Origin: Microcystis aeruginosa NIES-843
GTDB taxonomy: Bacteria > Cyanobacteriota > Cyanobacteriia > Cyanobacteriales > Microcystaceae
Length of the DNA: 32,000 bases
Assembly: GCF_000010625.1 (NCBI RefSeq)
Contig: NC_010296.1
Span: 1,920,001 to 1,952,000, forward strand
Direction of reading: 5' to 3'
Part shown: piece by piece, positions 1 through 31,866 of the stretch
How positions within the stretch are numbered: the first letter of the stretch is position 1
How the letters are laid out: each line of letters opens with the position of its first letter
The notes under the pieces: model-generated
What the model saw: only the letters and a program-made list of their open reading frames with translations
The model's database searches: none
What the model was told of the DNA's origin: nothing
Translations under genes and position numbers: made by a program

Positions 1-435
1 TTCGTTCCCTATAACCATTGGTTGAACCCTTAGGATGATACTGTCCACAACAGAGTAACGGGAATGCCTTACTGATAGTGGTATGAGCTATCAGCCCCAA
101 CTCTGTTAACTTTTGTTTCGAGCCTGTCAGCCTTTTGGCTCGTGGGTGTTGACGATGGTTAATTCGTATCTTCGCCCCAGGGCTATCCATAGGTTCTGGC
201 TCAACGGGTTTCTGATTTAGGCTATCAGATACCGCTTTTTTTTCCTCGCTCACTACCTCAGATGTACCAAGTCTAAAGCAGCAGGAAATGCCGTCACTCT
301 AGGCATCTAGAGGACAGGACTAAGGTTATTACTAACCCGCACCTGTAGGGTTATAAAGTTATCAAGGTACTACATTTACCAAGCGGCTAATCCTCTAAAC
401 GTCTTACTGTCTAGTTTCTAGCCAACGAATCGCAC
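1..435 (-). mobile_element. ORF-less group II intron, copy 1 (5' 435 nt only; continues past the left window edge)
   Basis: 1-435 is identical to 807-1241 and, apart from a T8/T10 run, to 1669-2105. On the minus strand the unit starts at 435 with GTGCGATTCG, matching the group II GUGYG 5' consensus. Confidence 0.85.
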
Positions 436-456
436 CACACCCCACACCCTACACCC
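436..456. repeat. Heptamer tract (YACACCC)x3 separating intron copies 1 and 2
   Basis: Plus strand reads cacaccc cacaccc tacaccc. The minus strand reads GGGTGTA GGGTGTG GGGTGTG directly 5' of the GTGCG of copy 1 and directly 3' of the ...CTGTAAC end of copy 2. Confidence 0.95.
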
Positions 457-1241
457 GTTACAGTAGAGCAGGAAGTCGCCTTCCCACCCCCTGCTTCAAA
501 ACCGGACTTACGACTTTCGCCGTATCCGGCTCCTGAGTAACTAGGCTACTGTCATTAGTAGAATAATAATGGGAATTATTATTTCCTTGTCTATTCAACC
601 CTCTTGGCTGTATCCCCACCAGACAAGATTGTTGGTTTTAGGGCGTATATGACCGTTGATTGTTGCTTAGACTTCCTAGTTACCCGTCCTTTGTCAGCAT
701 ATCTTTGATATTACTCAAAGCCTTGGCTTTTAAGGACATCCTCTCCCTCTATTGACTTGCGGATGGTTTCCTACTGCCCCGAACGGGCAGAGTCAATCAG
801 GGTTACTTCGTTCCCTATAACCATTGGTTGAACCCTTAGGATGATACTGTCCACAACAGAGTAACGGGAATGCCTTACTGATAGTGGTATGAGCTATCAG
901 CCCCAACTCTGTTAACTTTTGTTTCGAGCCTGTCAGCCTTTTGGCTCGTGGGTGTTGACGATGGTTAATTCGTATCTTCGCCCCAGGGCTATCCATAGGT
1001 TCTGGCTCAACGGGTTTCTGATTTAGGCTATCAGATACCGCTTTTTTTTCCTCGCTCACTACCTCAGATGTACCAAGTCTAAAGCAGCAGGAAATGCCGT
1101 CACTCTAGGCATCTAGAGGACAGGACTAAGGTTATTACTAACCCGCACCTGTAGGGTTATAAAGTTATCAAGGTACTACATTTACCAAGCGGCTAATCCT
1201 CTAAACGTCTTACTGTCTAGTTTCTAGCCAACGAATCGCAC
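457..1241 (-). mobile_element. ORF-less group II intron, copy 2 (complete, 785 nt)
   Basis: On the minus strand the 5' GTGCG is at 1241-1237 and domain V is at 532-499. Domain VI is a ~15-bp helix (GCAGGGGGUGGGAAG / CUUCCUGCUCU-A-CUGU) with a GCGA loop and a bulged A 8 nt from the 3' end. The 3' end ...CUACUGUAAC lies at 457. The position expected for domain IV holds only a small AU hairpin (562-583), and no RT/maturase ORF is present. Confidence 0.88.
499..532 (-). other. Group II intron domain V (copy 2)
   Basis: Minus strand reads GAGCCGGAU-ACGGC-GAAA-GUCGU-AA-GUCCGGUUU. It has a 9-bp lower helix containing the AGC triad, a 2-nt bulge, a 5-bp upper helix and a GNRA tetraloop. The architecture matches the canonical 34-nt DV. 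Confidence 0.9.
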
Positions 1242-1318
1242 CACACCCCACACCCTACACCCCACACCCTACACCCTACACCCCACACCCCACACCCTAC
1301 ACCCCACACCCTACACCC
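1242..1318. repeat. Heptamer tract (YACACCC)x11 separating intron copies 2 and 3
   Basis: 77 nt parse exactly into 11 heptamers: cacaccc cacaccc tacaccc cacaccc tacaccc tacaccc cacaccc cacaccc tacaccc cacaccc tacaccc. Confidence 0.95.
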
Positions 1319-2105
1319 GTTACAGTAGAGCAGGAAGTCGCCTTCCCACCCCCTGCTTCAAAACCGGACTTACGACTTTCGCCGTATCCGGCTCCTGAGT
1401 AACTAGGCTACTGTCATTAGTAGAATAATAATGGGAATTATTATTTCCTTGTCTATTCAACCCTCTTGGCTGTATCCCCACCAGACAAGATTGTTGGTTT
1501 TAGGGCGTATATGACCGTTGATTGTTGCTTAGACTTCCTAGTTACCCGTCCTTTGTCAGCATATCTTTGATATTACTCAAAGCCTTGGCTTTTAAGGACA
1601 TCCTCTCCCTCTATTGACTTGCGGATGGTTTCCTACTGCCCCGAACGGGCAGAGTCAATCAGGGTTACTTCGTTCCCTATAACCATTGGTTGAACCCTTA
1701 GGATGATACTGTCCACAACAGAGTAACGGGAATGCCTTACTGATAGTGGTATGAGCTATCAGCCCCAACTCTGTTAACTTTTGTTTCGAGCCTGTCAGCC
1801 TTTTGGCTCGTGGGTGTTGACGATGGTTAATTCGTATCTTCGCCCCAGGGCTATCCATAGGTTCTGGCTCAACGGGTTTCTGATTTAGGCTATCAGATAC
1901 CGCTTTTTTTTTTCCTCGCTCACTACCTCAGATGTACCAAGTCTAAAGCAGCAGGAAATGCCGTCACTCTAGGCATCTAGAGGACAGGACTAAGGTTATT
2001 ACTAACCCGCACCTGTAGGGTTATAAAGTTATCAAGGTACTACATTTACCAAGCGGCTAATCCTCTAAACGTCTTACTGTCTAGTTTCTAGCCAACGAAT
2101 CGCAC
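1319..2105 (-). mobile_element. ORF-less group II intron, copy 3 (complete, 787 nt)
   Basis: Same sequence as copy 2 except T10 instead of T8 at about 1904-1913. The 5' GTGCG is at 2105-2101, DV at 1394-1361 and the 3' end at 1319. Confidence 0.88.
1361..1394 (-). other. Group II intron domain V (copy 3)
   Basis: Identical 34-nt DV sequence to 499-532. Confidence 0.9.
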
Positions 2106-2158
2106 CACACCCCACACCCTACACCCAAGAAAAACTTTTTGCCTTTTGCCGCAAACCC
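2106..2158 (+). mobile_element. Right-arm fragment of the ~214-bp MITE family, host of the intron array
   Basis: Three heptamers are followed by aagaaaaactttttgccttttgccgcaaaccc. This matches the heptamer-proximal arm of the copies at 4224-4437 and 31766-31866. It is followed by TAATTA (2159-2164), which fits the TAWNTA flank seen at intact copies. Confidence 0.75.
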
Positions 2159-2161
2159 TAA

Positions 2162-2839
2162 TTAGGGCAGCCATTCCAGTAAAATTCCTAGGGAGCTATC
2201 TTTACGGGCGCGGGAATTTTGGGCTTGAATATCGGCGGCTAAACGTAAATTAGAGGTAATCGCATAACCAACCGAAAGAGTAGTCAATCCCACCTCGTTA
2301 GCACCCCCCGGTGAGATAAAACTCTGACTGACGGTGATATCTGCTGCCCCCGTGCGAGAAAGGGCTAATTTGAGCTTTAATCCTAAGTTAAGCCCATCGG
2401 TGCTGTAATTTCCTGTCTGAATGTAACGATAGCCCACCATGGGAGCCAGATTGACATAATCACCCAAAGGGAGGAGATAGTATTGTAAATTTGCTCCTAT
2501 TGCCGTCCTTTTGCCGTTAAAAGCCGTCTGATAATCGCCGCTTAGGGTTAAACTGGTTTGACCGAAAAACACATCTTCTACCCCCAAAATCACGCCACTG
2601 GAATTATCGGTAGAAGGAAACTCTGCATATCCTAAACGGATACGAGTGCGAAAACTAGGATCGCGGCGAATATCTTCGGCGATATCGGGTATTTTTTCTA
2701 ACCAACGCTCTAAAACTGGGCTTTCTTGCCGAATTTTCGGGTCTAAGTCTAACTCCGTTTCTGCCCACACCGGACCAATCGCCCCCCATAATAAACCAAG
2801 AGCGATCGCATTTACAGAACAGCAAGAGAGCTTAAACAT
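2162..2839 (-). CDS. Hypothetical secreted protein, possibly an outer-membrane beta-barrel
   Basis: ORF track 2162..2857. The start is moved to the ATG at 2839, giving MFKLSCCSVNAIALGLLWGAIGPVWA-ETE, a signal-peptide-like N-terminus. The body has alternating hydrophobic/polar beta-strand-like segments (LGLKLKLALS, LTTLSVGYAITSNLRLAADIQ). No family was recognised. Confidence 0.6.
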   Translation of the reverse strand: MFKLSCCSVNAIALGLLWGAIGPVWAETELDLDPKIRQESPVLERWLEKIPDIAEDIRRDPSFRTRIRLGYAEFPSTDNSSGVILGVEDVFFGQTSLTLSGDYQTAFNGKRTAIGANLQYYLLPLGDYVNLAPMVGYRYIQTGNYSTDGLNLGLKLKLALSRTGAADITVSQSFISPGGANEVGLTTLSVGYAITSNLRLAADIQAQNSRARKDSSLGILLEWLP

Positions 2840-2915
2840 GATCTGCATTATAATCAAAAAAGATTCAGATTCCCCGCTATTCTTGAGAGGACGGGGGGCA
2901 GTAGGAGCAGCAATA

Positions 2916-4220
2916 GTGGTTAGAATATTAAAACTTTCGCAATTAAGTAGCGCAGAACGGGCAAAACTTCAGAAAAGAGCCGAGTTAGATATTGATAACG
3001 CCCTCAAAGTCGCTCAAACGGTCATAGAAACCATCCGCGAACGGGGGGATGCCGGCGTTGTGGACTATGTGCGGCGTTTTGACTACGAAGGTGCGACGGT
3101 AGAAAATATCAAAGTCAGCGAGGCAGAATTTGAGCGGGCTTTTCATTTAATTGAACCGGAAGTAAAAACTGCCATTGAACAGGCTTTCCGGAATATTCAA
3201 GAGGTACATCGTCGCCAAATGCCAGAAGAAACACTACTGGCAGAAATTGAAACCGGTGTCTTTGCCGGCGAAAAAATCTCTCCTATCCCCAATGTGGGTT
3301 TATACGTTCCCCGGGGCCGCGGTGCTTTTCCCTCGATGATGTTAATGTTAGCCATCCCGGCAATGGTGGCAGGAGTGGAAAGAGTTGTCGTTTGCACTCC
3401 CCCCGATAAACAGGGCAACGTGGAACCCGTTTCTCTGGTGGCGGCGCAGATGGCTGGAGTCAGAGAAATTTATAAATTAGGGGGCGTACAAGCGATCGCC
3501 GCTTTGGCTTTGGGAACAAAAAATATCAAAAGGGTTGACAAAATTACCGGTCCGTGCAGCGTCTATGGGGCGGCGGCCAAGCGGTTACTGTTCGGTACTG
3601 TGGATGTGGGTTTGCCGGCCGGTCCAAGTGAGTCGATAGTTTTGGCCGATGAGTCCACCGATGCCCGTTTAGCGGCCTTGGATTTATTAATTGAAGCGGA
3701 ACACGGGGCGGATTCGGCGGCTTTATTAGTCACCCACTGTGAAGATTTGGCGATCGCTGCTAGTGAATATGCACAGGAATACCTGCAAAAACTCCCGGAT
3801 TGGCGACGGGAATTCTGTGAGGCGGGTTTAGCCGCCTATGGGGGCATAATTTTAACCGATAGTTTGCAGCAATCCCTCGATTTTGTCAATGAGTACGCCC
3901 CGGAACATCTAGAGGTTTTAGTTAGTAATCCTTTTGCCATTCTGGGCAAGATTAAAAATGCTGGCGAAATTCTCCTGGGAAATCATACTCCTTCCTCTAT
4001 GGCTACCTACGCCATCGGAGTCAATGCTGTGCTGCCGACGGGAAGTTTTGCCCGTTCCTATTCGGCGGTTTCGGTTTATGATTTTCTCAAGCGCTCCACT
4101 TTGGCTTATGTCACCCCTGAAGGCTTTGAAAAGTTAAAAGAAACCACGAAAACTTTAGCCGAGTACGAAGGTTTTCCCGCCCATAAATTAGCAATTCAAC
4201 ACAGGGAAATTTTACTCTAA
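2916..4220 (+). CDS. hisD: Histidinol dehydrogenase
   Basis: Frame of ORF 2646..4220. Family-typical motifs are GGVQAIAALALGT, PAGPSESIVLADE, LIEAEHGADSAA and NEYAPEHLEV. The start is set to the in-frame GTG at 2916 (VVRILKLSQ...), giving ~434 aa. The upstream part of the ORF overlaps the divergent gene and has no HisD-like sequence. Confidence 0.85.
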   Translation: MVRILKLSQLSSAERAKLQKRAELDIDNALKVAQTVIETIRERGDAGVVDYVRRFDYEGATVENIKVSEAEFERAFHLIEPEVKTAIEQAFRNIQEVHRRQMPEETLLAEIETGVFAGEKISPIPNVGLYVPRGRGAFPSMMLMLAIPAMVAGVERVVVCTPPDKQGNVEPVSLVAAQMAGVREIYKLGGVQAIAALALGTKNIKRVDKITGPCSVYGAAAKRLLFGTVDVGLPAGPSESIVLADESTDARLAALDLLIEAEHGADSAALLVTHCEDLAIAASEYAQEYLQKLPDWRREFCEAGLAAYGGIILTDSLQQSLDFVNEYAPEHLEVLVSNPFAILGKIKNAGEILLGNHTPSSMATYAIGVNAVLPTGSFARSYSAVSVYDFLKRSTLAYVTPEGFEKLKETTKTLAEYEGFPAHKLAIQHREILL

Positions 4221-4223
4221 ATA

Positions 4224-4437
4224 GGGTTTGCGGCAAAAAGTTTTTCGTGGGGGCAGGGTGTGGGGTGTGGGGTGTGGGGTGTAGGGTTTTACCGATTTTC
4301 ATCTGGTCAATTACCTAATTTTCAGGGAAAAAGTACCTGAATTTTCCCCCCGCTCACTCCCACGGCCGGTACTTTTGGATTGACAAAAAGTCTAAAAGTC
4401 TTATCCAGCAAGGTTTTTAGATTTATTCAGCAAGCCC
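4224..4437 (-). mobile_element. MITE-like element, intact copy A (214 bp)
   Basis: Ends are GGGTTTGCGG... and ...CAAGCCC (imperfect TIR). It is flanked by the direct repeat TAAATA at 4218-4223 and 4438-4443; the left copy contains the hisD TAA stop. The internal heptamer tract lies at 4256-4290, G-rich on the plus strand. Confidence 0.85.
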
Positions 4438-4763
4438 TAAATACAGGGAATAGGAAACGGGGAATAACTTAGATATGTAGGCAAGCTTATTTTTTAAATT
4501 CAGTACAGCTGGTTCTTCGTTACTTGGTATGGTTCGATAGGGGGGCATAAATCGACTAAATCCTTATCTGGCAAGAGACTTAATTGATTAGTTCGCTCTA
4601 GATAAAAAACAATTGACAAAAATCGCTAAATGCCTTTCTATATAAGGGTTCCATCCCTTACAACCCCCCTCTATTGCATAACACAAACCGAAGAGCCATC
4701 CTCCTCCTGTTGCGGAAAAATTAAGAAAGTTAAGGCAACAAAGAAAAGCAGTCAAACAAGTAA

Positions 4764-7925: not shown

Positions 7926-7945
7926 TAAAATATAGTTTCTAACTA

Positions 7946-8159
7946 GGGTCTGCTGAATAAATCTAAAAACCTTGTTGGATAAGACTTTTGGACTTTTTTC
8001 CCCTCAAAAAGTGCCAGCCATTGGAGTGATCGGGGGTAAAATTCAGGTACTTTTTCCCTGAAAATTAGGTAACTGACTACCTCAAAATCGGTAAAACCCT
8101 ACACCCTACACCCTACACCCCACACCCTGCCCCCACCAACAAACTTTTTCAGCAGACCC
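7946..8159 (+). mobile_element. MITE-like element, intact copy B (214 bp)
   Basis: The TIR is GGGTCTGCTGAA at both ends (12/12). It is flanked by TAACTA at 7940-7945 and 8160-8165; the right copy contains the hemW stop codon (CTA at 8163-8165, i.e. TAG on the minus strand). The heptamer tract lies at 8093-8127. Confidence 0.88.
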
Positions 8160-8162
8160 TAA

Positions 8163-9335
8163 CTATTGCCAGCGATCGAATAAATCGGTTAAAACTAGAT
8201 TAGAAAACAAAAAACCTTCGGGGTCGCTTAATCTTACCCTGCTATCCCCCTCAATTATTACTAAATTACGCTGTTTATGCGGCTCTAAGACCTCTAAAAT
8301 TGCTTTTTTGATTTCCGAGCCAAAATTAGCTTCAATTGCGGGCAAACTCACACCTTCTGCTAACCTTAACCCTAGCATTAAGGTTTCGAGAAGATCATCA
8401 ATCAAGCTATTTTTCTCCACGTCAATCTGACAGCCTTCTTTTACCCAAGCGAAATAGTCGCGACTTTTGCGCGGACGGGTAAAACGTTGTTGATGAAGAT
8501 AACTAGCAGCCCCCATACCAAAGCCGTAATAGGGACGATTTTCCCAGTAAACCCGATTATGTCGGCATTGATAACCCGGTTTGGCATAGTTAGAAATCTC
8601 GTAATGTTGATAACCGGCTAAAGCTAGTTTTTCACCGGCTAAAACATACATTTTTGCCGTGGTTTCATCATCGGGTAAGGGTTTTTTCCCCGGTTGATAC
8701 TGTTTACCGAAAGGAGTAACCGCCTCTAAGACCAAATCGTAACAGGAAAGATGGGCCGGTTGCAGTTTGATCGCTTTTTCTAGGGAATTTTCCCAATCTG
8801 TCAGGGTTTGTTGTGGCAATCCTGAAATCAAATCCAAACTATAGTTAACTATTCCCAATCCCTGAATTAATTCCACTGCCTGATAGATATCCTTAACAGT
8901 ATGCGATCGACCGGAAACCTGTAATAATGGTTCTTGAAAAGCCTGTACTCCTAAACTAACCCGATTGACTCCTGCGCTAAGATAACCCTGTAATTGTTCT
9001 AAACTAAAGGTAGCCGGATCAATCTCCATAGAAATCTCTATATCGGCCGCAAAATCAAACTTTTTAGCTAAAGTATCCAGAATCGATCCTAATAATTCCA
9101 CCGGTAATAGGGAAGGAGTCCCCCCCCCAAAAAAAATTGTTTCTAGGGGTTTCCCCGTCCCCTGACTAAGGCTAATTTCTTCCTGTAATATTTCCACATA
9201 CTCCACCACAGGGGGAAAAGTCGCCGGATTGGTGCGATTACCAAGGACAAAAATCGGGAAATCGCAGTAAAAACAGCGCCGACGACAAAAGGGAATATGA
9301 ATATAAACCGAGGTTACGGGGTGAAAATAGGACAT
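8163..9335 (-). CDS. hemW: Radical SAM heme chaperone / coproporphyrinogen III oxidase-like protein
   Basis: ORF track. It has the radical SAM cluster motif CRRRCFYCDF near the N-terminus, plus GGGTPS. Its 390-aa length fits the HemW/HemN-like group. Confidence 0.8.
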   Translation of the reverse strand: MSYFHPVTSVYIHIPFCRRRCFYCDFPIFVLGNRTNPATFPPVVEYVEILQEEISLSQGTGKPLETIFFGGGTPSLLPVELLGSILDTLAKKFDFAADIEISMEIDPATFSLEQLQGYLSAGVNRVSLGVQAFQEPLLQVSGRSHTVKDIYQAVELIQGLGIVNYSLDLISGLPQQTLTDWENSLEKAIKLQPAHLSCYDLVLEAVTPFGKQYQPGKKPLPDDETTAKMYVLAGEKLALAGYQHYEISNYAKPGYQCRHNRVYWENRPYYGFGMGAASYLHQQRFTRPRKSRDYFAWVKEGCQIDVEKNSLIDDLLETLMLGLRLAEGVSLPAIEANFGSEIKKAILEVLEPHKQRNLVIIEGDSRVRLSDPEGFLFSNLVLTDLFDRWQ

Positions 9336-10109: not shown

Positions 10110-13100
10110 TTAACCAAGAGCGTCGAAGAAATAGTTATTGGAGACCAATAATCCTGTGGATAAGGTTCCGACCATTCCTGTCACTTCAATGAAAAGATCG
10201 CTTGCCGCATTATAGCCGGAAATATTGTCATTGACAGCGAGATAACTGCGACGGGTTGTAGTAGTGGCACCAAAGCTAAAGAAGACCGCCTGATTTACCC
10301 CTAACGTTTGCATTCCGGGGGTGTTGGGATCGGCATCGGCGTAGGCGAGGTTTACCGCTTCGGTTAGATTGGCGGCGCTGATAATCCCCGCGTTGAAGGT
10401 AGCGTCTGGAGTCGTGACTAGGTAGATGCGATCGCCTTCATCGGGGTTAAAACTCCGCAGGCGATCGGGATTGGCAAACAGAGAGTCGGTAAAGTTCTGG
10501 TAAACAAAGGTATCGGCCCCCGTGCCACCAGTAAGGACATCTTTGCCGGGGCCACCGTTCAGGATATCATCGCCGGCACCGCCATTTAGGTTGTCATCGC
10601 CTTCCCGCCCGTTGATAATGTCATTATCGTCACCCCCGGCAAAAACATCATTACCGCTAGTACCGACAAAAGTGGGCAGTGCATTTACATCATCATTTAG
10701 GATCGTGACATTACCTCGATCGGTTCCGAGAATCGCTCCGTTTGGGTTAGTGAGGTTAACCGAGAAACTTTCATCGAATTCGAGACCCGTATCCCCCACA
10801 ATCGGGATATCTAGGGTTAGGGCCGTAGTACCGGGATGGAAAGTTAAAGTACCATTGGTGGCGGTATAGTCGGAACCAGCGATCGCTGGATGATTTCCCG
10901 TACCATCTTGGGTAGCGTAATCTACGGTTACGATGCGCGTGCTAGGAATCGAAAGATTGACTGTTAGACGCACCGCGTGACTATCACTATTTTCTTCGGC
11001 AACAGAGGAGCTTGTGATACTGAATCTCGGTGAGAACTGGTTAGCTGCACCGTCGAGGAAGCCTTGATCTTGGGTAATCACAGAGTCTAAGGCAACAGCA
11101 TCCAAGGCCTCATCCGGGATACCTACTCGAATGGCGGCATCGATAGCGGCTTGAACTTGATCGGGGGGTAAATCGTCTAGGGTGATTCGAGGGGGAGAAG
11201 GAGCGTCAGGCGAGGGGGTATCGAACAGGGATTCGCTCTGACGCACCCGCCAGCTATCAGCCCATACTCCGTGCAATTGCTCCCAACTGGGATCAGCTGG
11301 TAATAAAGTCCCATCCCGCAGAGCGAAGTCATTAGAGCGATTACCATCTCCATTCCCCAGAAATCCTTGCATCAGACCTACTCGTTCGTAGGAAGGAAGA
11401 ACAGTTATGTTGATATGATTGCCATTGTCCCAAGCGATAAGTCTATCATCGTCAGCCGTATAGAGCCTCCTGTCTGCTCCAGCATAAATTAAGGTATAGA
11501 CATTATCTTGTCGCTGGATTAGAGAGTTACCAACGGTGAGGAATTGGCCACTGGTTAATGTCATTTTAGCCCCGTCAATTTTGAGTTTTTTGTCTGGCTC
11601 AAAATCTTGATCGAATATAATTTTGTAACCTTCGGTTTGTGTCGAAAAAGCGGTGTTTACAGAAACTCTAGAATCGTAGAACCAAGGTTCTTGACGAGTT
11701 TGAATTTGCCAACCATCAACAGTGGACTTAACGAGAATAAAGTCGCCTACGGATTGCTGATGAAACCAAGAATCAACGCCAGGTTTTTGATCGACTCGGC
11801 GATCAAAATTGAGAAAATGTACATCTCCCCAAGCATCACCTATAAGGCTCCGAATGGGTATTATTTCCTCATAAGATAAACCCCCTAGATCTGTAGTTCT
11901 GACTCGAATACTAAAGTCAAACGGATCTTGGGTGTTTAAGAGTGCGTTAGTTTTGAGTTGATTTCCCACAAGAATAAATCGGCTGTTATCCCTGTCACCC
12001 AGTCCAGATATTAAGCTATAAGTAAAGGCATCACCAACATCAGGATCTACAGTGCTAAAGTTCCCTAATAGTGTGCCAATTGGGAGATTCCCAACAGCAG
12101 GTATTTTGGTGAGAAGAATATCTGTAGGATAGTCGTTATTGAGGATAGTGCCAGTAACCGCGGTGGTTGTACCAATATTATAATCTGTTCCTGTTACTAA
12201 CGTCAAAGCCACGGTCTCATCGCCCTCAGTGATATTAGTATCTATCGTTGGGCTAACAGTTAAAGTCGCCGTTGGGGAATTAGCGGCAAAAGTGACCGTT
12301 CCAGATGTCCCCGTAAAACTGGTAGCACCCACTTGAGTATAATCAGTGTTAAAGGTTGCTGATCCACCGACAAGATAATTAACCGTAAGAGGATTCGTTT
12401 TTGTACCTGTACGAGTAAAGGTGTAAACTAGGTTTCCGCTTGCATTTTCACTAATGCTACTAGGTGAAACACTCAAGGAAATAGTAGGTTTCGGTGGCTG
12501 AATAAAAGTCGCTCCGTAAATTCCCCATCGTTTACCACTGCTGATCTGGGAGAAATCAAACCACCGAACTGCCGCACCATCCCAGGTATCATGACAGGCA
12601 TATTGCCTGGTAGTTGCATCATAACCAATAGCAGTTACAAAATGATCTGTGCCACCATTACCATCCGTATCCACCAAAAATACCATGGGACGCGCATTAT
12701 TGATTTCATTCACGAAGTCATCCCAAGTAAAACCCCCCCAGACTTCATTCCATGAATTAAACTGAGCATAACCTTGATAGTTTGTATACCCGATGATGGC
12801 ATCATCCACATCGTCAAACCAAGACCATCCATAGTAATTACTGATACTACTCCAAGATGTTCTCATAAAGTCGGCTAGAGAATCACTAGAGTGAGCCCCA
12901 CCGAAGACAGATCGATCCTGTAAAAGACCGGTATGTTCATCATCTCTTGGTAGAGAATAATCATTATAGTGGCCACTACTTGCAATAGCTTCGTTTACTT
13001 CATTTGTCTGAGTTGTACTATCTCCTGGAATTAAATTCGGAAAACCATTTCTGTCCCAGTAACCAATCACCATACCTGCTGCAGTTGGACCACAGCCATG

Positions 13101-13787
13101 ATGCCAAATATACTCATATACACCTTGAATTAAAGTGGGTGTTCCTAGAGAAACTTCTCGCACCGTATTAGATAAGGACTGCTGGTTAGGGAAAGGACCA
13201 CCAGCAGGCCCTATTGTGCCGGCATCATTATATATATAGGGGGTACCGCTGATAGGCATTACAAATTGTATGTCATCAGCCAAAGAATCCGGATAAGGCC
13301 CAGAAATAGAAATGAGCGGCAGTGGCGGTGGCGGTTCAATAATCGTTCCTGTTGCTGAATAATTGATGCCGATACCATAACCAGAATTATCAGGAGTCTC
13401 CAAAATTCTTAAGGTTACGGTTTCATCGGATTCTGCATTATTATCAGCATAAGGGTTGACGGTGACGGTAGTTGTTTCTGACCATTCCCCAAAGTGAACA
13501 TAAAAAGCATCACCGTATTGAGGATGACCAAAGTTGATCCCTGTTTGTGAGTAATCACTATAATTAGATGCCGTCCCTTCAATACTTATTAAAACATCTA
13601 AAGCATTAGTGATATTCCCAGTTCGGCTGAAGGTAAACACTAGCTTATCTGCGCCATTTTCGGTAACACTTTCAGGAGATACAGCAACAGAAATAATCGG
13701 TTGTTCATCTGAGAGCGGATTGAACGATAAATTATTGCTTAAATCATCCGATAAACTATAAACAGGAAACAAAGAGATAGTATTCAT
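10110..13787 (-). CDS. Large multidomain surface/secreted protein: Calx-beta-like x3, C39-like cysteine peptidase, cadherin-like, VWD-like, RTX repeats, C-terminal domain
   Basis: ORF track, 1225 aa. Calx-beta-like segments lie at about aa 31-150, 435-552 and 922-1033 (AGSDYTATNGTLTFHPG..., DESFSVNL). A papain-like/C39-like region lies at about aa 220-430 (HHGCGPTAAGMVIGYW, Cys232 codon 13092-13094; TDHFVTAIGYD, His382 codon 12642-12644). A VWD-like region lies at about aa 650-830 (GDVHFLNFD ... GFLGNGDGNRSNDF). RTX nonapeptides lie at aa ~1040-1096 (GGDDNDIINGREGDDNLNGGAGDDILNGGPGKDVLTGGTGADTF; nt ~10500-10670). No N-terminal signal peptide is evident. Confidence 0.85.
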   Translation of the reverse strand: MNTISLFPVYSLSDDLSNNLSFNPLSDEQPIISVAVSPESVTENGADKLVFTFSRTGNITNALDVLISIEGTASNYSDYSQTGINFGHPQYGDAFYVHFGEWSETTTVTVNPYADNNAESDETVTLRILETPDNSGYGIGINYSATGTIIEPPPPLPLISISGPYPDSLADDIQFVMPISGTPYIYNDAGTIGPAGGPFPNQQSLSNTVREVSLGTPTLIQGVYEYIWHHGCGPTAAGMVIGYWDRNGFPNLIPGDSTTQTNEVNEAIASSGHYNDYSLPRDDEHTGLLQDRSVFGGAHSSDSLADFMRTSWSSISNYYGWSWFDDVDDAIIGYTNYQGYAQFNSWNEVWGGFTWDDFVNEINNARPMVFLVDTDGNGGTDHFVTAIGYDATTRQYACHDTWDGAAVRWFDFSQISSGKRWGIYGATFIQPPKPTISLSVSPSSISENASGNLVYTFTRTGTKTNPLTVNYLVGGSATFNTDYTQVGATSFTGTSGTVTFAANSPTATLTVSPTIDTNITEGDETVALTLVTGTDYNIGTTTAVTGTILNNDYPTDILLTKIPAVGNLPIGTLLGNFSTVDPDVGDAFTYSLISGLGDRDNSRFILVGNQLKTNALLNTQDPFDFSIRVRTTDLGGLSYEEIIPIRSLIGDAWGDVHFLNFDRRVDQKPGVDSWFHQQSVGDFILVKSTVDGWQIQTRQEPWFYDSRVSVNTAFSTQTEGYKIIFDQDFEPDKKLKIDGAKMTLTSGQFLTVGNSLIQRQDNVYTLIYAGADRRLYTADDDRLIAWDNGNHINITVLPSYERVGLMQGFLGNGDGNRSNDFALRDGTLLPADPSWEQLHGVWADSWRVRQSESLFDTPSPDAPSPPRITLDDLPPDQVQAAIDAAIRVGIPDEALDAVALDSVITQDQGFLDGAANQFSPRFSITSSSVAEENSDSHAVRLTVNLSIPSTRIVTVDYATQDGTGNHPAIAGSDYTATNGTLTFHPGTTALTLDIPIVGDTGLEFDESFSVNLTNPNGAILGTDRGNVTILNDDVNALPTFVGTSGNDVFAGGDDNDIINGREGDDNLNGGAGDDILNGGPGKDVLTGGTGADTFVYQNFTDSLFANPDRLRSFNPDEGDRIYLVTTPDATFNAGIISAANLTEAVNLAYADADPNTPGMQTLGVNQAVFFSFGATTTTRRSYLAVNDNISGYNAASDLFIEVTGMVGTLSTGLLVSNNYFFDALG

Positions 13788-15817: not shown

Positions 15818-15849
15818 AAGGGAAGTTAAGTCACCAATCGAACTATCTA

Positions 15850-16062
15850 GGGTTTGCTAAAAAAGTTTTTCCTGGTGGCAGGGTGTGGGGTGTAGGGTGT
15901 GGGGTGTGGGGTTTTACCCATTTTCAGGTGGTCAATTACCTAATTTTCAGGGAAAAAGTCCAGGAATTTTCCCCCCAATCACTCCAAAGGTCGGCACTTT
16001 TTGAGGGAAAAAAAGTCTAAAAACCTTGTTGGACAAGGTTTTTAGATTTATTCAGCAAACCC
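15850..16062 (-). mobile_element. MITE-like element, intact copy C (213 bp)
   Basis: Ends are GGGTTTGCT... and ...GCAAACCC. It is flanked by TATCTA at 15844-15849 and 16063-16068. The heptamer tract lies at 15881-15915. An internal perfect 13-bp hairpin TCTAAAAACCTTG/CAAGGTTTTTAGA lies at about 16015-16045. Confidence 0.88.
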
Positions 16063-16084
16063 TATCTAGCCAATTTATATCTAA

Positions 16085-18626: not shown

Positions 18627-18772
18627 GATCCCCCCTGCCCCCCTTGATAAGGGGGGTGCCGATAGGCGGGGGGATCTACCCTTGATAAGGGGGGTGCCTG
18701 ATCCCCCCTGCCCCCCTTGATAAGGGGGGTGCCGATAGGCGGGGGGATCTACCCTTGATAAGGGGGGTTTCT
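18627..18772. repeat. 2 x 73-bp tandem repeat built from nested G6/C6 palindromes
   Basis: The unit is GATCCCCCCTGCCCCCCTTGATAAGGGGGGTGCCGATAGGCGGGGGGATCTACCCTTGATAAGGGGGGTGCCT. It starts at 18627 and again at 18700. It contains the inner hairpin CCCCCC-TTGATAA-GGGGGG and the outer pairing GATCCCCCC/GGGGGGATC. Confidence 0.9.
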
Positions 18773-18791
18773 GATAATTTTTAACACATAC

Positions 18792-28702: not shown

Positions 28703-28854
28703 ATCAGTTATCAGTTATCAGTTATCAGTTAAAAGGGTTTGGGTGTTGGGGTTGTAGGGTTGTAGGGTTTTAGGGTTTTAGGGTTTTAGTTGAATTTCCC
28801 CATCACCCCACTTCCCCACTTCCCCATCACCCCGTCTCCCGTCTCCCGTCTCCC
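28703..28854. repeat. Compound short-tandem-repeat block filling a divergent promoter region
   Basis: It contains (ATCAGTT)x4 at 28703-28730 and G-rich 8-mers (TAGGGTTG x2, TAGGGTTT x3) within 28735-28790. It also contains CCCCATCA/CCCCACTT 8-mers at 28798-28833 and (GTCTCCC)x3 at 28834-28854. Confidence 0.95.
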
Positions 28855-30430: not shown

Positions 30431-30566
30431 AGCTAATCCTCCCGATGGCTTGTCTTCAAAGTTACAAAGCTTTTATTTGAAGCAGTTTATAATAAAAGTA
30501 ACTCTGTACAAAGCTTATCGGGTTTCAGCTTGGCTATTACTTTATTCTCAAACTTTTAACTAAGTA

Positions 30567-30779
30567 GGGTTTGCTGAATAAATCTAAAAACCTTGTTGGA
30601 TAAGGCTTTTAGACTTTTTTTCCCTGAAAAAGTGCCTACCATTGGAGTGATTGGGGGGAAAATTTAGGGATTTTTTCCCTGAAAATTAGGTAATTGACCA
30701 CCTGAAAATGGGTAAAACCCCACACCCCACACCCCACACCCCACACCCTGCCCCCACGAAAAACTTTTTCAGCAGCCCC
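30567..30779 (+). mobile_element. MITE-like element, intact copy D (213 bp)
   Basis: Ends are GGGTTTGCTGAA... and ...TTCAGCAGCCCC. It is flanked by TAAGTA at 30561-30566 and 30780-30785. The heptamer tract lies at 30714-30748. Confidence 0.88.
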
Positions 30780-30872
30780 TAAGTAGTCGGGCCTAACTTT
30801 TTTCAGTCTGGCGATTATTGGCGTTTCATCCCGACAAATCCCGACAAAATTGCTATCTAGATAGGAGTCCTA

Positions 30873-31765: not shown

Positions 31766-31866
31766 CCTGAAAGTGCCAGCCATTGGAGTGAACGGGGGGA
31801 ATAAAACCCTACACCCCACACCCTACACCCCACACCCCACCAACAAGCTTTTTGCCGCAACACCCA
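31766..31866 (+). mobile_element. MITE-like element, truncated and internally deleted copy E
   Basis: cctgaaagtgccagccattggagtga... matches the interior of copies B and D. A 5-unit heptamer tract follows at 31803-31837, then the arm ccaacaagctttttgccgcaacaccc. It lacks the left end, about 60 internal bp and a recognisable TSD. Confidence 0.65.

Follow-up and report, generated by a model that had tools for sequence, protein, structure and literature searches.

Several group II introns use repeated or mobile DNA as homing sites, among them the attC-associated introns of integrons and RmInt1, which resides in ISRm2011-2. Class C group II introns home behind terminators (PMC12584367), and two of the nine copies of the P. 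putida KT2440 intron are associated with REP sequences (PMC1525189). Group II introns without an open reading frame (ORF) are well known to proliferate by means of the reverse transcriptases (RTs) of other introns (PMC2882425). For example, the ORF-less copies among the TeI3 introns of T. elongatus are mobilized by "driver" RTs of other introns (Mohr, Ghanem & Lambowitz 2010, PMC2882425). Tandem integration of the intron EcKTE56.groEL is more frequent with the ORF-deleted form (PMC12584367). The first-pass annotation of the locus described here had presented its tandem ORF-less introns as novel, which was overstated, because tandem integration, especially of an ORF-deleted intron, has been demonstrated experimentally (PMC12584367). 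In the literature that we searched, no description was found of a heptanucleotide microsatellite as a group II homing target.

The locus lies at one end of the window, by which we mean the whole stretch of 32,000 nucleotides of Microcystis aeruginosa NIES-843 DNA that was analyzed. Within positions 1-2164, an ORF-less group II intron lies head to tail on the minus strand, with two copies complete and a third cut by the window. The features of the array are as follows:

1-435, minus strand: intron copy A, of which the window edge leaves the 5' 435 nt, with GTGCG at 431-435; 100% identity with the corresponding stretch of copy B
436-456, minus strand: spacer of three heptamers (GGGTGTA GGGTGTG GGGTGTG), being the 3' exon of copy B and the 5' exon of copy A
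457-1241, minus strand: intron copy B, complete and ORF-less, 785 nt, with the RF00029 match at 457-534 and the D1D4-2 match at 1028-1095
1242-1318, minus strand: spacer of 11 GGGTGTR heptamers, 77 nt, being the 3' exon of copy C and the 5' exon of copy B
1319-2105, minus strand: intron copy C, complete, 787 nt, aligned to copy B, with the RF00029 match at 1319-1396
2106-2126, minus strand: 5' exon of copy C, three heptamers (A-G-G types), part of the MITE's own heptamer tract
1904-1913 (copy C, A10), 1042-1049 (copy B, A8) and 236-243 (copy A, A8), minus strand: A-run, located by alignment

The tandem repeat reported in the first-pass annotation is thus present, with start-to-start spacings of 806 and 862 bp and with units of 785 and 787 nt that differ in one homopolymer. 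The minus-strand coordinates also agree with its count of at least three head-to-tail copies parted by heptamers alone. The two intercopy spacers are pure GGGTGTR, of 21 nt (3 units) and 77 nt (11 units). Length of the A-run is the sole difference among copies A, B and C; the dispersed copies described below have A7 or A8, and copy B is 100% identical to copies from other loci. A twintron was rejected as a description of the array, because the copies lie side by side, each with exon heptamers of its own.

The same annotation had called the units group II introns and had named two kinds of Rfam search by which the assignment could be checked. Both complete 3' ends match the full model (1-77) of RF00029 (Intron_gpII) at 55 bits (E 2e-8), where the gathering score is 40, and on this point the assignment is confirmed. 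The second model, RF01999 (group-II-D1D4-2), matches each of the three copies at one corresponding place in domain I, but its scores (26.7, 26.7 and 23.2 bits) fall below the gathering score of 36. Domains I-IV were placed solely from sub-threshold model matches and a thermodynamic fold; the minimum free energy of the whole intron has a z-score of -5.1. The following parts bear on the assignment:

499-532 (copy B) and 1361-1394 (copy C), minus strand: domain V, GAGCCGGATACGGCGAAAGTCGTAAGTCCGGTTT, with AGC triad, bulge and GAAA loop
457-494 (copy B) and 1319-1356 (copy C), minus strand: domain VI, with GCGA loop and bulged branch-point A at 464 or 1326
562-583 (copy B) and 1424-1445 (copy C), minus strand: domain IV, 22 nt, a 9-bp AU hairpin with UCCC loop and no ORF

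The 5' ends read GTGCG at 431-435, 1237-1241 and 2101-2105 of the minus strand, the 3' end reads ...CUACUGUAAC, and the bulged A (464, 1326) lies eight nucleotides from the intron 3' end. Given the RF00029 match above threshold, the GUGCG 5' end, domain V and the branch-point A, the array units are, as judged from these sequence features, ORF-less group II introns. Their ORF-less character, also claimed earlier, was upheld by the AU hairpin of domain IV and by the longest internal ORFs (88 and 53 aa), in which no Pfam domain was found. An autonomous mobile group II intron was considered and rejected, because the 22-nt hairpin of domain IV holds no RT/maturase ORF. Compensatory changes were sought among the copies and not found, the family being too uniform; its lone variable block (nt 385-407) shows no clear covariation. 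The first 86-96 nt of the intron share 75-77% identity with RT-encoding introns of Nostocales. A search of a plasmid collection returned only short similarities to Nostocales introns, which are of value as an outgroup.

Of the 5' exons, 13 could be read, and each of them has GGGTGTR-GGGTGTR at its end; the +1 base is G at every junction. Two segments of domain I are proposed to recognize these exons:

886-891 (copy B; 80-85 in copy A, 1748-1753 in copy C), minus strand: proposed EBS1, CAUACC, in a 9-nt terminal loop, intron nt 351-356
948-955 (copy B; 142-149 in copy A, 1810-1817 in copy C), minus strand: proposed EBS2, ACACCC(AC), intron nt 287-294

CAUACC is complementary to GGUGUG, the last six exon bases. 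This IBS1 pairing is complete (6/6, one G-U included) in 11 of the 13 exons, and the other two have A at -1, which mismatches C351. The CAUACC loop is homologous to the EBS1 loop of an RT-encoding relative, L017, whose loop complements the exon of L017 itself. IBS2 (GGGUGU) forms six Watson-Crick pairs with ACACCC in every one of the 13 exons, and ACACCC is the only 6-mer within the intron that is perfectly Watson-Crick complementary to the heptamer. The pairing is drawn with GGGUGU at -14 to -9; an alternative register, CCCAC with -10 to -6, leaves it ambiguous, since the target repeats. An A occupies position -15 in 12 of 13 sites. In IIB1 and IIB2 introns, EBS2a lies two nucleotides upstream of EBS2, with A on its 3' side, and IBS2a is immediately 5' of IBS2 (PMC8643678). 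Fitting this rule to the conserved A at -15 failed, in that the candidates C285 and A286 would not pair, with the EBS2 register uncertain. EBS3 was not located within the intron. The 3' exons of L010, L029 and L031 are not heptamers, as is expected if recognition lies mainly in the 5' exon.

The target motif GGGTGTRGGGTGTRG occurs 29 times in the window and not once in 100 shuffles, so chance is excluded. Five other heptamer tracts in the 32-kb window, with 15 target motifs, are all empty. Within the array, the 11-heptamer spacer (1242-1318) holds one preferred site (A-G-G|A) that is empty, and a zero-spacer site (heptamers followed by intron G1) is present and unoccupied. Tract density in the fetched loci is about 1.7 per 10 kb. 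Because all 13 exon ends are heptameric and two domain I loops are complementary to them, the survey of loci identifies the G-rich (GGGTGTR)n microsatellite as the homing site of the intron.

The outer flank of the array belongs to a MITE that adjoins a gene:

2127-2159, minus strand: terminal inverted repeat region forming the left arm of a MaeMITEa-like MITE that is truncated here, identified by aligning it to the four full copies and to empty alleles
2160-2163, minus strand: AATT, target (TSD) of the MITE, overlapping the TAA stop codon at 2162-2164
2162-2839, minus strand: gene for a 225-aa product in which no Pfam domain was found; the array lies downstream in sense orientation
4223-4438 (plus), 7945-8160 (minus), 15849-16063 (plus) and 30566-30780 (minus): full MITE copies, with unoccupied homing sites

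The four full MITEs in the window are 215-216 bp long, have ends AGGG...CCCT and terminal inverted repeats of about 16 nt, and are flanked by 4-bp TSDs of the form ANNT (AAAT, AGTT, ATCT and ACTT). The copy at 4223-4438 contains an empty tract of four heptamers. MaeMITEa is 219 bp long and has 240 copies (PMC2779907); by size, the window MITE fits a MaeMITEa-like element. The left arm at 2127-2159 has a 7-nt internal duplication, GGCAAAA. At the array locus, the right end of the MITE is absent, and all that remains of the element in intron-free alleles is its left arm, the heptamers and GGGTTTTACCGAT (13 nt), which is adjoined by unrelated CTGATAA-type repeats. The sequences indicate that the MITE here is a truncated copy in all strains compared. 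Thus, the earlier proposal that the array is nested in a MITE on the stop codon of a gene stands as regards the arm and the stop-codon overlap, but not as regards a whole element. The proposed sense orientation relative to gene 2162-2839 is correct: the array starts 56 nt downstream of the stop codon, and no terminator-like site is predicted between the two.

The intron-free locus was found in at least 15 contigs, and when exact protein matches to the 225-aa gene product and to hisD were sought, they led to intron-free alleles only. In these alleles, the exon sequences join as an unbroken heptamer tract, which points to precise insertion without target duplication. L041, which shares flank variants with the array allele, has A-G-G|A at the exact copy C site, reading A-G-G-A and then GGGTTTTACC. 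Because intron-free strains carry from 2 to 36 heptamers (the long alleles have 17 and 36), the locus is, on this comparison of alleles, a hypervariable microsatellite with a clean insertion polymorphism.

The same intron is found at about 20 other loci in Microcystis contigs, at 98.6-100% identity. Full copies are present at seven other sites (six at 100% identity, one at 99.7%); further copies are those of L026 (99.7%), L027 (98.6%) and M. aeruginosa PCC 9443 (98.7%), and eight additional 3' junctions were detected. Among species-representative genomes, exact domain V matches are confined to the M. aeruginosa metagenome-assembled genome M131, which has nine, all at contig ends. Dispersed copies lie in both orientations relative to neighboring genes, and decayed and IS-disrupted copies are represented by L036 and L028. 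L028 is one contig from a search of metagenomes with a domain IV/domain V pattern. Its foreign upstream sequence was considered as the end of an intron ORF, which was rejected: a chimeric probe that joined an HNH motif to the 22-aa tail showed this tail to be the C terminus of an IS605-family TnpB, and L028 therefore has an IS inside domain IV. Together, some 20 near-identical loci, both orientations, decayed copies and intron-free alleles bear the signature of recent selfish spread.

Several searches were directed at an RT that could mobilize the intron. No RT-encoding sibling with the same domains V and VI was found. In species-representative genomes, the domain V pattern yielded contig-end fragments only and no RT-encoding parent. 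The 53-aa frame across domains V and VI, compared with 5.8 billion proteins, matched two short Microcystis ORFs and no long protein, and the 88-aa frame of domain I occurs only in ORF-less copies. None of the best 120 matches to a Tolypothrix intron RT was named Microcystis. When all 447 kb of fetched loci were searched by tblastn, one RT intron of Microcystis was detected (L043), and its domain I has no BLAST similarity to the ORF-less intron. The syntenic genome AP019314.1 encodes a group II intron protein (RVT_N/RVT_1/GIIM(/HNH)) 8.6 kb from hisD, and the domain I of this intron is not similar by BLAST. RT-encoding group II introns thus do occur in Microcystis, and seven group II RTs have been reported for NIES-843 (PMC8934634).

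We propose, with a probability of roughly 0.8, that a non-autonomous intron homes to the heptamer microsatellite, founded this array by retrohoming, and then increased to at least three copies. In brief, the ACACCC(AC) and CAUACC loops of domain I would base-pair with the two heptamers that close the 5' exon. As a result of this pairing and of the constant G at +1, the intron would enter exactly between two heptamers and duplicate none of its target. Heptamer tracts, either within the abundant 216-bp MITE or free-standing in intergenic regions, would offer roughly 10^3 neutral landing sites per genome. The founding copy presumably arrived by retrohoming, with RT/maturase supplied in trans. The heptamers on both sides of each copy would then serve as recombination substrates and as fresh targets, and thereby could allow copy number to rise to at least three. 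If transcription reads through from the upstream gene, splicing of each copy could join the heptamer mini-exons to one another. A host function for the array is improbable.

Two routes for the multiplication of the copies are close in likelihood. Amplification by unequal exchange or slippage between flanking tracts has about an even chance, and is slightly likelier than successive retrohoming, in which all three copies would have inserted independently into a long pre-existing tract with no duplication at the DNA level. The latter course is a credible one that falls somewhat short of even odds. All three copies have the favored bases around their insertion points (A at -15, G at -8 and -1, and G at +1), alleles as long as 17 and 36 heptamers offer many sites, copy C has an A-run different from that of A and B, and re-insertion beside an existing copy occurs in 4-22% of integrants in an experimental system (PMC12584367). 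However, the perfect A-G-G|A in the 77-nt spacer is unused, and because the five other tracts in 32 kb are empty, three independent insertions in one tract are unlikely unless that tract was already long. With about 10^3 tracts per genome, a triple insertion in one of them is improbable by a rough estimate. In addition, a single unequal crossover within an L041-like allele (A-G-G|A) would give exactly the 21-nt A-G-G spacer.

It is very improbable that mis-assembly of a repeat inflated a single insertion into an artefactual tandem array. A multi-copy repeat of 100% identity does break short-read assemblies, as the nine M131 junctions at contig ends (9/9) illustrate, and two copies were seen in no other fetched contig. 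Nevertheless, collapse or duplication artefacts rarely give unequal spacers (21 and 77 nt) and a copy C with its own A-run, and the neighboring genes, which are intact, do not differ from those of other strains, as in a polished assembly. We give the least weight of all to the idea that the introns are no active selfish retroelement but relics that have lost mobility, or a structured element of the 3' UTR domesticated for a host function such as transcript stabilization or regulation of the 225-aa gene or of the convergent metH. The position of the array would suit such an element, being in sense orientation within a 3' untranslated region and having no terminator predicted ahead of it, and the cognate RT was not found by the searches described above. 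At least 15 contigs of the locus lack the intron, though, and about 20 unrelated loci at 98.6-100% identity, in both orientations, with decayed or disrupted copies such as L036 and L028, are at odds with it.

Within the favored reading of homing followed by array growth, we advance more tentatively, and regard as somewhat doubtful, the view that the family is a currently active retroelement specialized on the G-rich heptanucleotide microsatellite of the MITE that is most abundant in Microcystis. Because no sibling RT intron is detectable, the RT that drives it would be non-cognate or free-standing. If this view is correct, new homing sites arise whenever the DNA transposon spreads or the microsatellite expands, and natural arrays with 21-nt mini-exons provide a prokaryotic model of intron proliferation into repeats. 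More generally, a stripped-down group II intron may reach high copy number without harm to its host by using a short tandem repeat that is neutral and abundant, expands by itself and is in part carried to new places by a MITE. The locus offers a natural system, in an ecologically important bloom-forming cyanobacterium, for studies of trans-mobilization, of target rules at repeated sites (including the A at -15) and of the interplay between retrohoming and microsatellite recombination. On a practical level, short-read assemblies of Microcystis break at the 785-nt unit, which can also give rise to chimeric contigs, and the intron is a strain-level insertion-polymorphism marker.

The T. elongatus TeI3 introns (PMC2882425) resemble those described here as cyanobacterial ORF-less introns derived from RT-encoding ones, and the TeI3-like trait of near-identical copies at EBS-matching sites recurs at about 20 Microcystis loci. 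TeI3 has clearly related RT siblings in its genome and ORF remnants at the deletion, whereas the Microcystis intron has a 22-nt domain IV hairpin and no sibling found. Moreover, the T. elongatus families diversified their EBS for new sites, whereas the Microcystis intron has one specificity and a site repeated hundreds of times. The IIB1 intron EcKTE56.groEL (Mob DNA 2025, PMC12584367) is similar in forming head-to-tail copies at one locus, where a usable target persists after the first insertion. In E. coli, however, the second copy abuts the first with no spacer and uses the first intron's G as IBS3, whereas 3 and 11 target repeats separate the Microcystis copies. Evidence for the former comes from over-expression assays and about 3% of reads (PMC12584367), and the Microcystis array resides in a natural genome. 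In Trichodesmium, which has multi-intron genes and a twintron (PMC4649490; dnaN introns via PMC12584367), introns occupy conserved coding genes or are nested, and splicing has been shown. In contrast, the Microcystis introns stand side by side in noncoding repeats. Like the class C, KT2440, attC and RmInt1 introns, the Microcystis intron has a homing site that is a multi-copy, selectively neutral sequence. Unlike theirs, its target is a tandem heptanucleotide microsatellite, partly MITE-borne, which thus can provide dozens of sites at one locus and promote unequal recombination. The array is an explicable variation on the known behavior of ORF-less, proliferating group II introns.

A direct repeat whose units are spaced 806 and 862 bp from start to start fills the window's first 2.1 kb; in it, the first-pass annotation had recognized at least three head-to-tail, ORF-less group II introns separated by GGGTGTR heptamers. 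This description was accurate, and order, copies and heptamer spacers were all recovered on the minus strand.

Features of the array locus
2162-2839, minus strand: 225-aa gene (TAA stop at 2162-2164)
2127-2159, minus strand: MITE arm, 33 nt
2106-2126, minus strand: three GGGTGTR heptamers
1319-2105, minus strand: intron copy C, 787 nt
1242-1318, minus strand: eleven heptamers (77-nt spacer)
457-1241, minus strand: intron copy B, 785 nt
436-456, minus strand: three heptamers
1-435, minus strand: intron copy A, cut by the window edge

The sole difference between copies B and C is an A-run (A8 versus A10), and copy A is identical to copy B across their common 435 nt. The group II assignment is borne out by the covariance model Rfam Intron_gpII, which matches at full length at both complete 3' ends with 55 bits (gathering score 40); group-II-D1D4-2 gives sub-threshold matches in each of the three copies, always in one position of domain I. 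Every copy starts with GUGCG. Domain V (DV) has 34 nt with an AGC triad and a GAAA loop, and in domain VI (DVI) the helix has a GCGA loop, with an A bulging out eight nucleotides from the 3' end. The whole unit folds far better than shuffled sequences (z = -5.1). The introns are indeed ORF-less, because domain IV (DIV) is only a 9-bp AU hairpin and the longest ORFs (88 and 53 aa) contain no Pfam domain.

In a scan of one genome per species, exact DV matches were found only in the M. aeruginosa MAG M131, where every one of the nine is at the end of a contig, the position to be expected if a repeat has collapsed. Gene callers annotate an 88-aa ORF within the intron that is spurious, so that further copies could be retrieved by exact-protein look-up; this yielded seven contigs, each with one complete copy at another locus (six 100% identical, one 99.7%). 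Scanning metagenomes and querying with the 53-aa frame brought in three other complete copies, two of them 99.7% and 98.6% identical and the third, in M. aeruginosa PCC 9443, 98.7% identical, together with eight additional 3' junctions and a copy with an internal deletion. In total, approximately 20 distinct loci carry the intron, in either orientation relative to neighboring genes.

Some of these loci show additional variation. Four contigs (L023, L024, L025 and L026) have one common 3' exon and four different 5' exons, which indicates that either dispersed copies recombined or short-read assemblies became chimeric across the 785-nt repeat. Strains also differ at what is apparently one and the same locus, with one heptamer after the intron or with none (L015 versus L034; L008 versus L021), a pattern that suggests either slippage once the intron was in place or separate insertion events. 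In L030, a GC-rich palindromic element with runs of C7/G7 is inserted precisely where the intron meets its 3' exon, and in L031 it lies close to this junction; the window contains a comparable GC-rich unit of 73 nt, duplicated in tandem upstream of mutS (18627-18775).

All 13 readable 5' exons end in GGGTGTR-GGGTGTR, and the first base of every 3' exon is G, usually as GGG, in some cases without further heptamers. Judging from these junctions, the heptamer tract is the homing site of the intron. Within domain I, ACACCC (nt 287-292) is the intron's only perfect Watson-Crick 6-mer complement to the heptamer and pairs with positions -14 to -9, counted back from the 5' splice site, while CAUACC (nt 351-356), within a 9-nt terminal loop, pairs with -6 to -1. 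Assignment of CAUACC as EBS1 is supported by the nearest RT-encoding relative found, a 2.4-kb intron on a Tolypothrix plasmid, because its homologous loop UUCUG complements its own exon CAGAA. For EBS2, proposed at ACACCC(AC), an alternative register (CCCAC with -10 to -6) may apply instead; the register is ambiguous because the target repeats. An A occupies -15 in 12 of the 13 sites, which the published EBS2a-IBS2a rule does not explain (PMC8643678), and two sites have an A at -1 that mismatches C351. A decayed copy in M. aeruginosa MAG S20 (contig L036, 1-290), without nt 426-579 and DV, has UAUACC rather than CAUACC in the EBS1 loop; this loop would be complementary to a 5' exon with A as its last base, and the copy's own 5' exon is off the contig.

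The MITE whose arm borders the array occurs elsewhere in the window.

Other MITE copies in the window
4223-4438, plus strand: full copy, 215-216 bp
7945-8160, minus strand: full copy, 215-216 bp
15849-16063, plus strand: full copy, 215-216 bp
30566-30780, minus strand: full copy, 215-216 bp
about 31770-31860: partial copy

The full copies have ends of the form AGGG...CCCT, terminal inverted repeats of approximately 16 nt, 4-bp target duplications (AAAT, AGTT, ATCT and ACTT; form ANNT) and, in each, a run of four internal GGGTGTR heptamers. By size and abundance, this MITE is a candidate for MaeMITEa of strain NIES-843 (219 bp, 240 copies; PMC2779907). The copy at the array locus is truncated, because only the left arm, heptamers and 13 nt survive in every strain examined, and its target AATT overlaps the TAA stop of the 225-aa gene. 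Owing to a T-ANNT-A target preference, the duplication overlaps a stop codon in three of five MITE copies, the other two being those at hisD (TAA, 4218-4220) and a HemN-like gene (TAG, 8163-8165). Runs of a second heptamer, CTGATAA/ATCAGTT (TAACTGA), adjoin G-rich heptamers at window 28703-28731 and in the flanks of many loci (for example, contig L002, 2395-2430); intergenic repeats of the TAACTGA type are known from Beggiatoaceae and from some cyanobacteria, Microcystis among them (PMC4679880).

At least 15 contigs of other strains carry the 225-aa gene and then metH without an intron, and their tracts contain 2-3, 4, 5, 7, 9, about 11, 17 or 36 heptamers. The array locus is thus a hypervariable microsatellite with an insertion polymorphism. 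One intron-free allele (L041) shares both flank variants of the window, a duplication of 7 nt in the arm and a tract preceded by TCTT, and its tract reads A-G-G-A by the last base of each heptamer, then GGGTTTTACC. The insertion point of copy C falls precisely after the third of these units and before the fourth, with no duplication and no loss. The duplication, GGCAAAA at window 2135-2148, is common to L039, L041 and L044 and absent in L002, L007, L042 and L043, and serves as a lineage marker for the window's allele. Syntenic genomes also vary in content at window 10110-13787 (minus strand), which encodes a 1225-aa protein with Peptidase_C39-like, VWD, Calx-beta and RTX repeat domains.

Retrohoming is the best explanation for the founding insertion, by which the intron would have entered a heptamer tract. 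For the subsequent amplification, we favor unequal exchange or slippage between the heptamer tracts flanking every copy, with a probability of roughly one half. A single crossover in an L041-like allele gives exactly the observed A-G-G spacer. Moreover, a perfect site within the 77-nt spacer is unoccupied, and five other tracts with 15 target motifs are empty in the same 32 kb. The fetched loci hold approximately 1.7 tracts per 10 kb, or roughly 10^3 per genome; therefore, three independent insertions in one tract would be unlikely, unless that tract was already long. In other strains, this locus does carry long tracts free of introns, all three copies have the preferred sequence context, and experimental tandem integration is frequent for another group II intron (PMC12584367), so that repeated retrohoming into one tract is only slightly less likely. 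That the tandem array is an assembly artefact is very improbable, given that the spacers are unequal and the A-run of copy C is private to that copy.

The mobilizing enzyme is the weakest link of the explanation. The first-pass annotation had envisaged a related RT-encoding intron or a trans-acting maturase, and searches with both frames failed to find an RT-encoding sibling: the 88-aa frame occurs only in ORF-less copies, and for the 53-aa frame, which runs through DV/DVI, the only matches in a set of 5.8 billion proteins are two short ORFs of Microcystis. Extra sequence in DIV of one copy (L028, 1-130; VYLL01000380.1), an apparent intron ORF, proved to be an IS605-family element inside the DIV hairpin loop; its TnpB C-terminus reads ...EQSKSVKAGAKNPSGKKQKPKS, and a subterminal hairpin is present. 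The 3' exon of this copy has diverged, and its DVI is changed (CCACTGTAAC).

Intron proteins with RT, maturase and HNH domains are present in Microcystis. In AP019314.1 (L043, 1-2100), a complete syntenic genome of 5.87 Mb, hisD and a group II intron that encodes an RT are 8.6 kb apart. The intron's 614-aa protein (RVT_N + RVT_1 + GIIM + HNH) is 56% identical to Nostocales-type proteins. The intron begins with GTGCGAAACG, its 5' exon is not a heptamer, and its domain I has no BLAST similarity to the array intron; it is found neither in the window nor at that position in other strains. Seven group II RTs have been reported for NIES-843 (PMC8934634). We infer that a driver RT with relaxed specificity may mobilize the array intron in trans, by analogy with the introns of T. 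elongatus, which are mobilized in this manner (PMC2882425).

Because the array lies 56 nt past the stop codon of the 225-aa gene, in sense orientation, and a simple scan of window 1-3000 detected no terminator-like hairpin, read-through transcription and splicing of the array may be possible.

The array intron is one of the ORF-less group II introns that proliferate, a class already known. Homing sites of group II introns are also known in attC and IS elements. Other multi-copy neutral DNA used in this way includes terminators (PMC12584367) and REP elements (PMC1525189). In the literature searched, we found no description of a tandem heptanucleotide microsatellite, partly MITE-borne, as a homing site, or of the array that results from it, in which introns naturally alternate with repeats of their own target. 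The first-pass annotation nevertheless overstated the degree of surprise, as tandem integration of a group II intron has been demonstrated experimentally (PMC12584367), and the known targeting rules predict such an arrangement once the target is itself a repeat.
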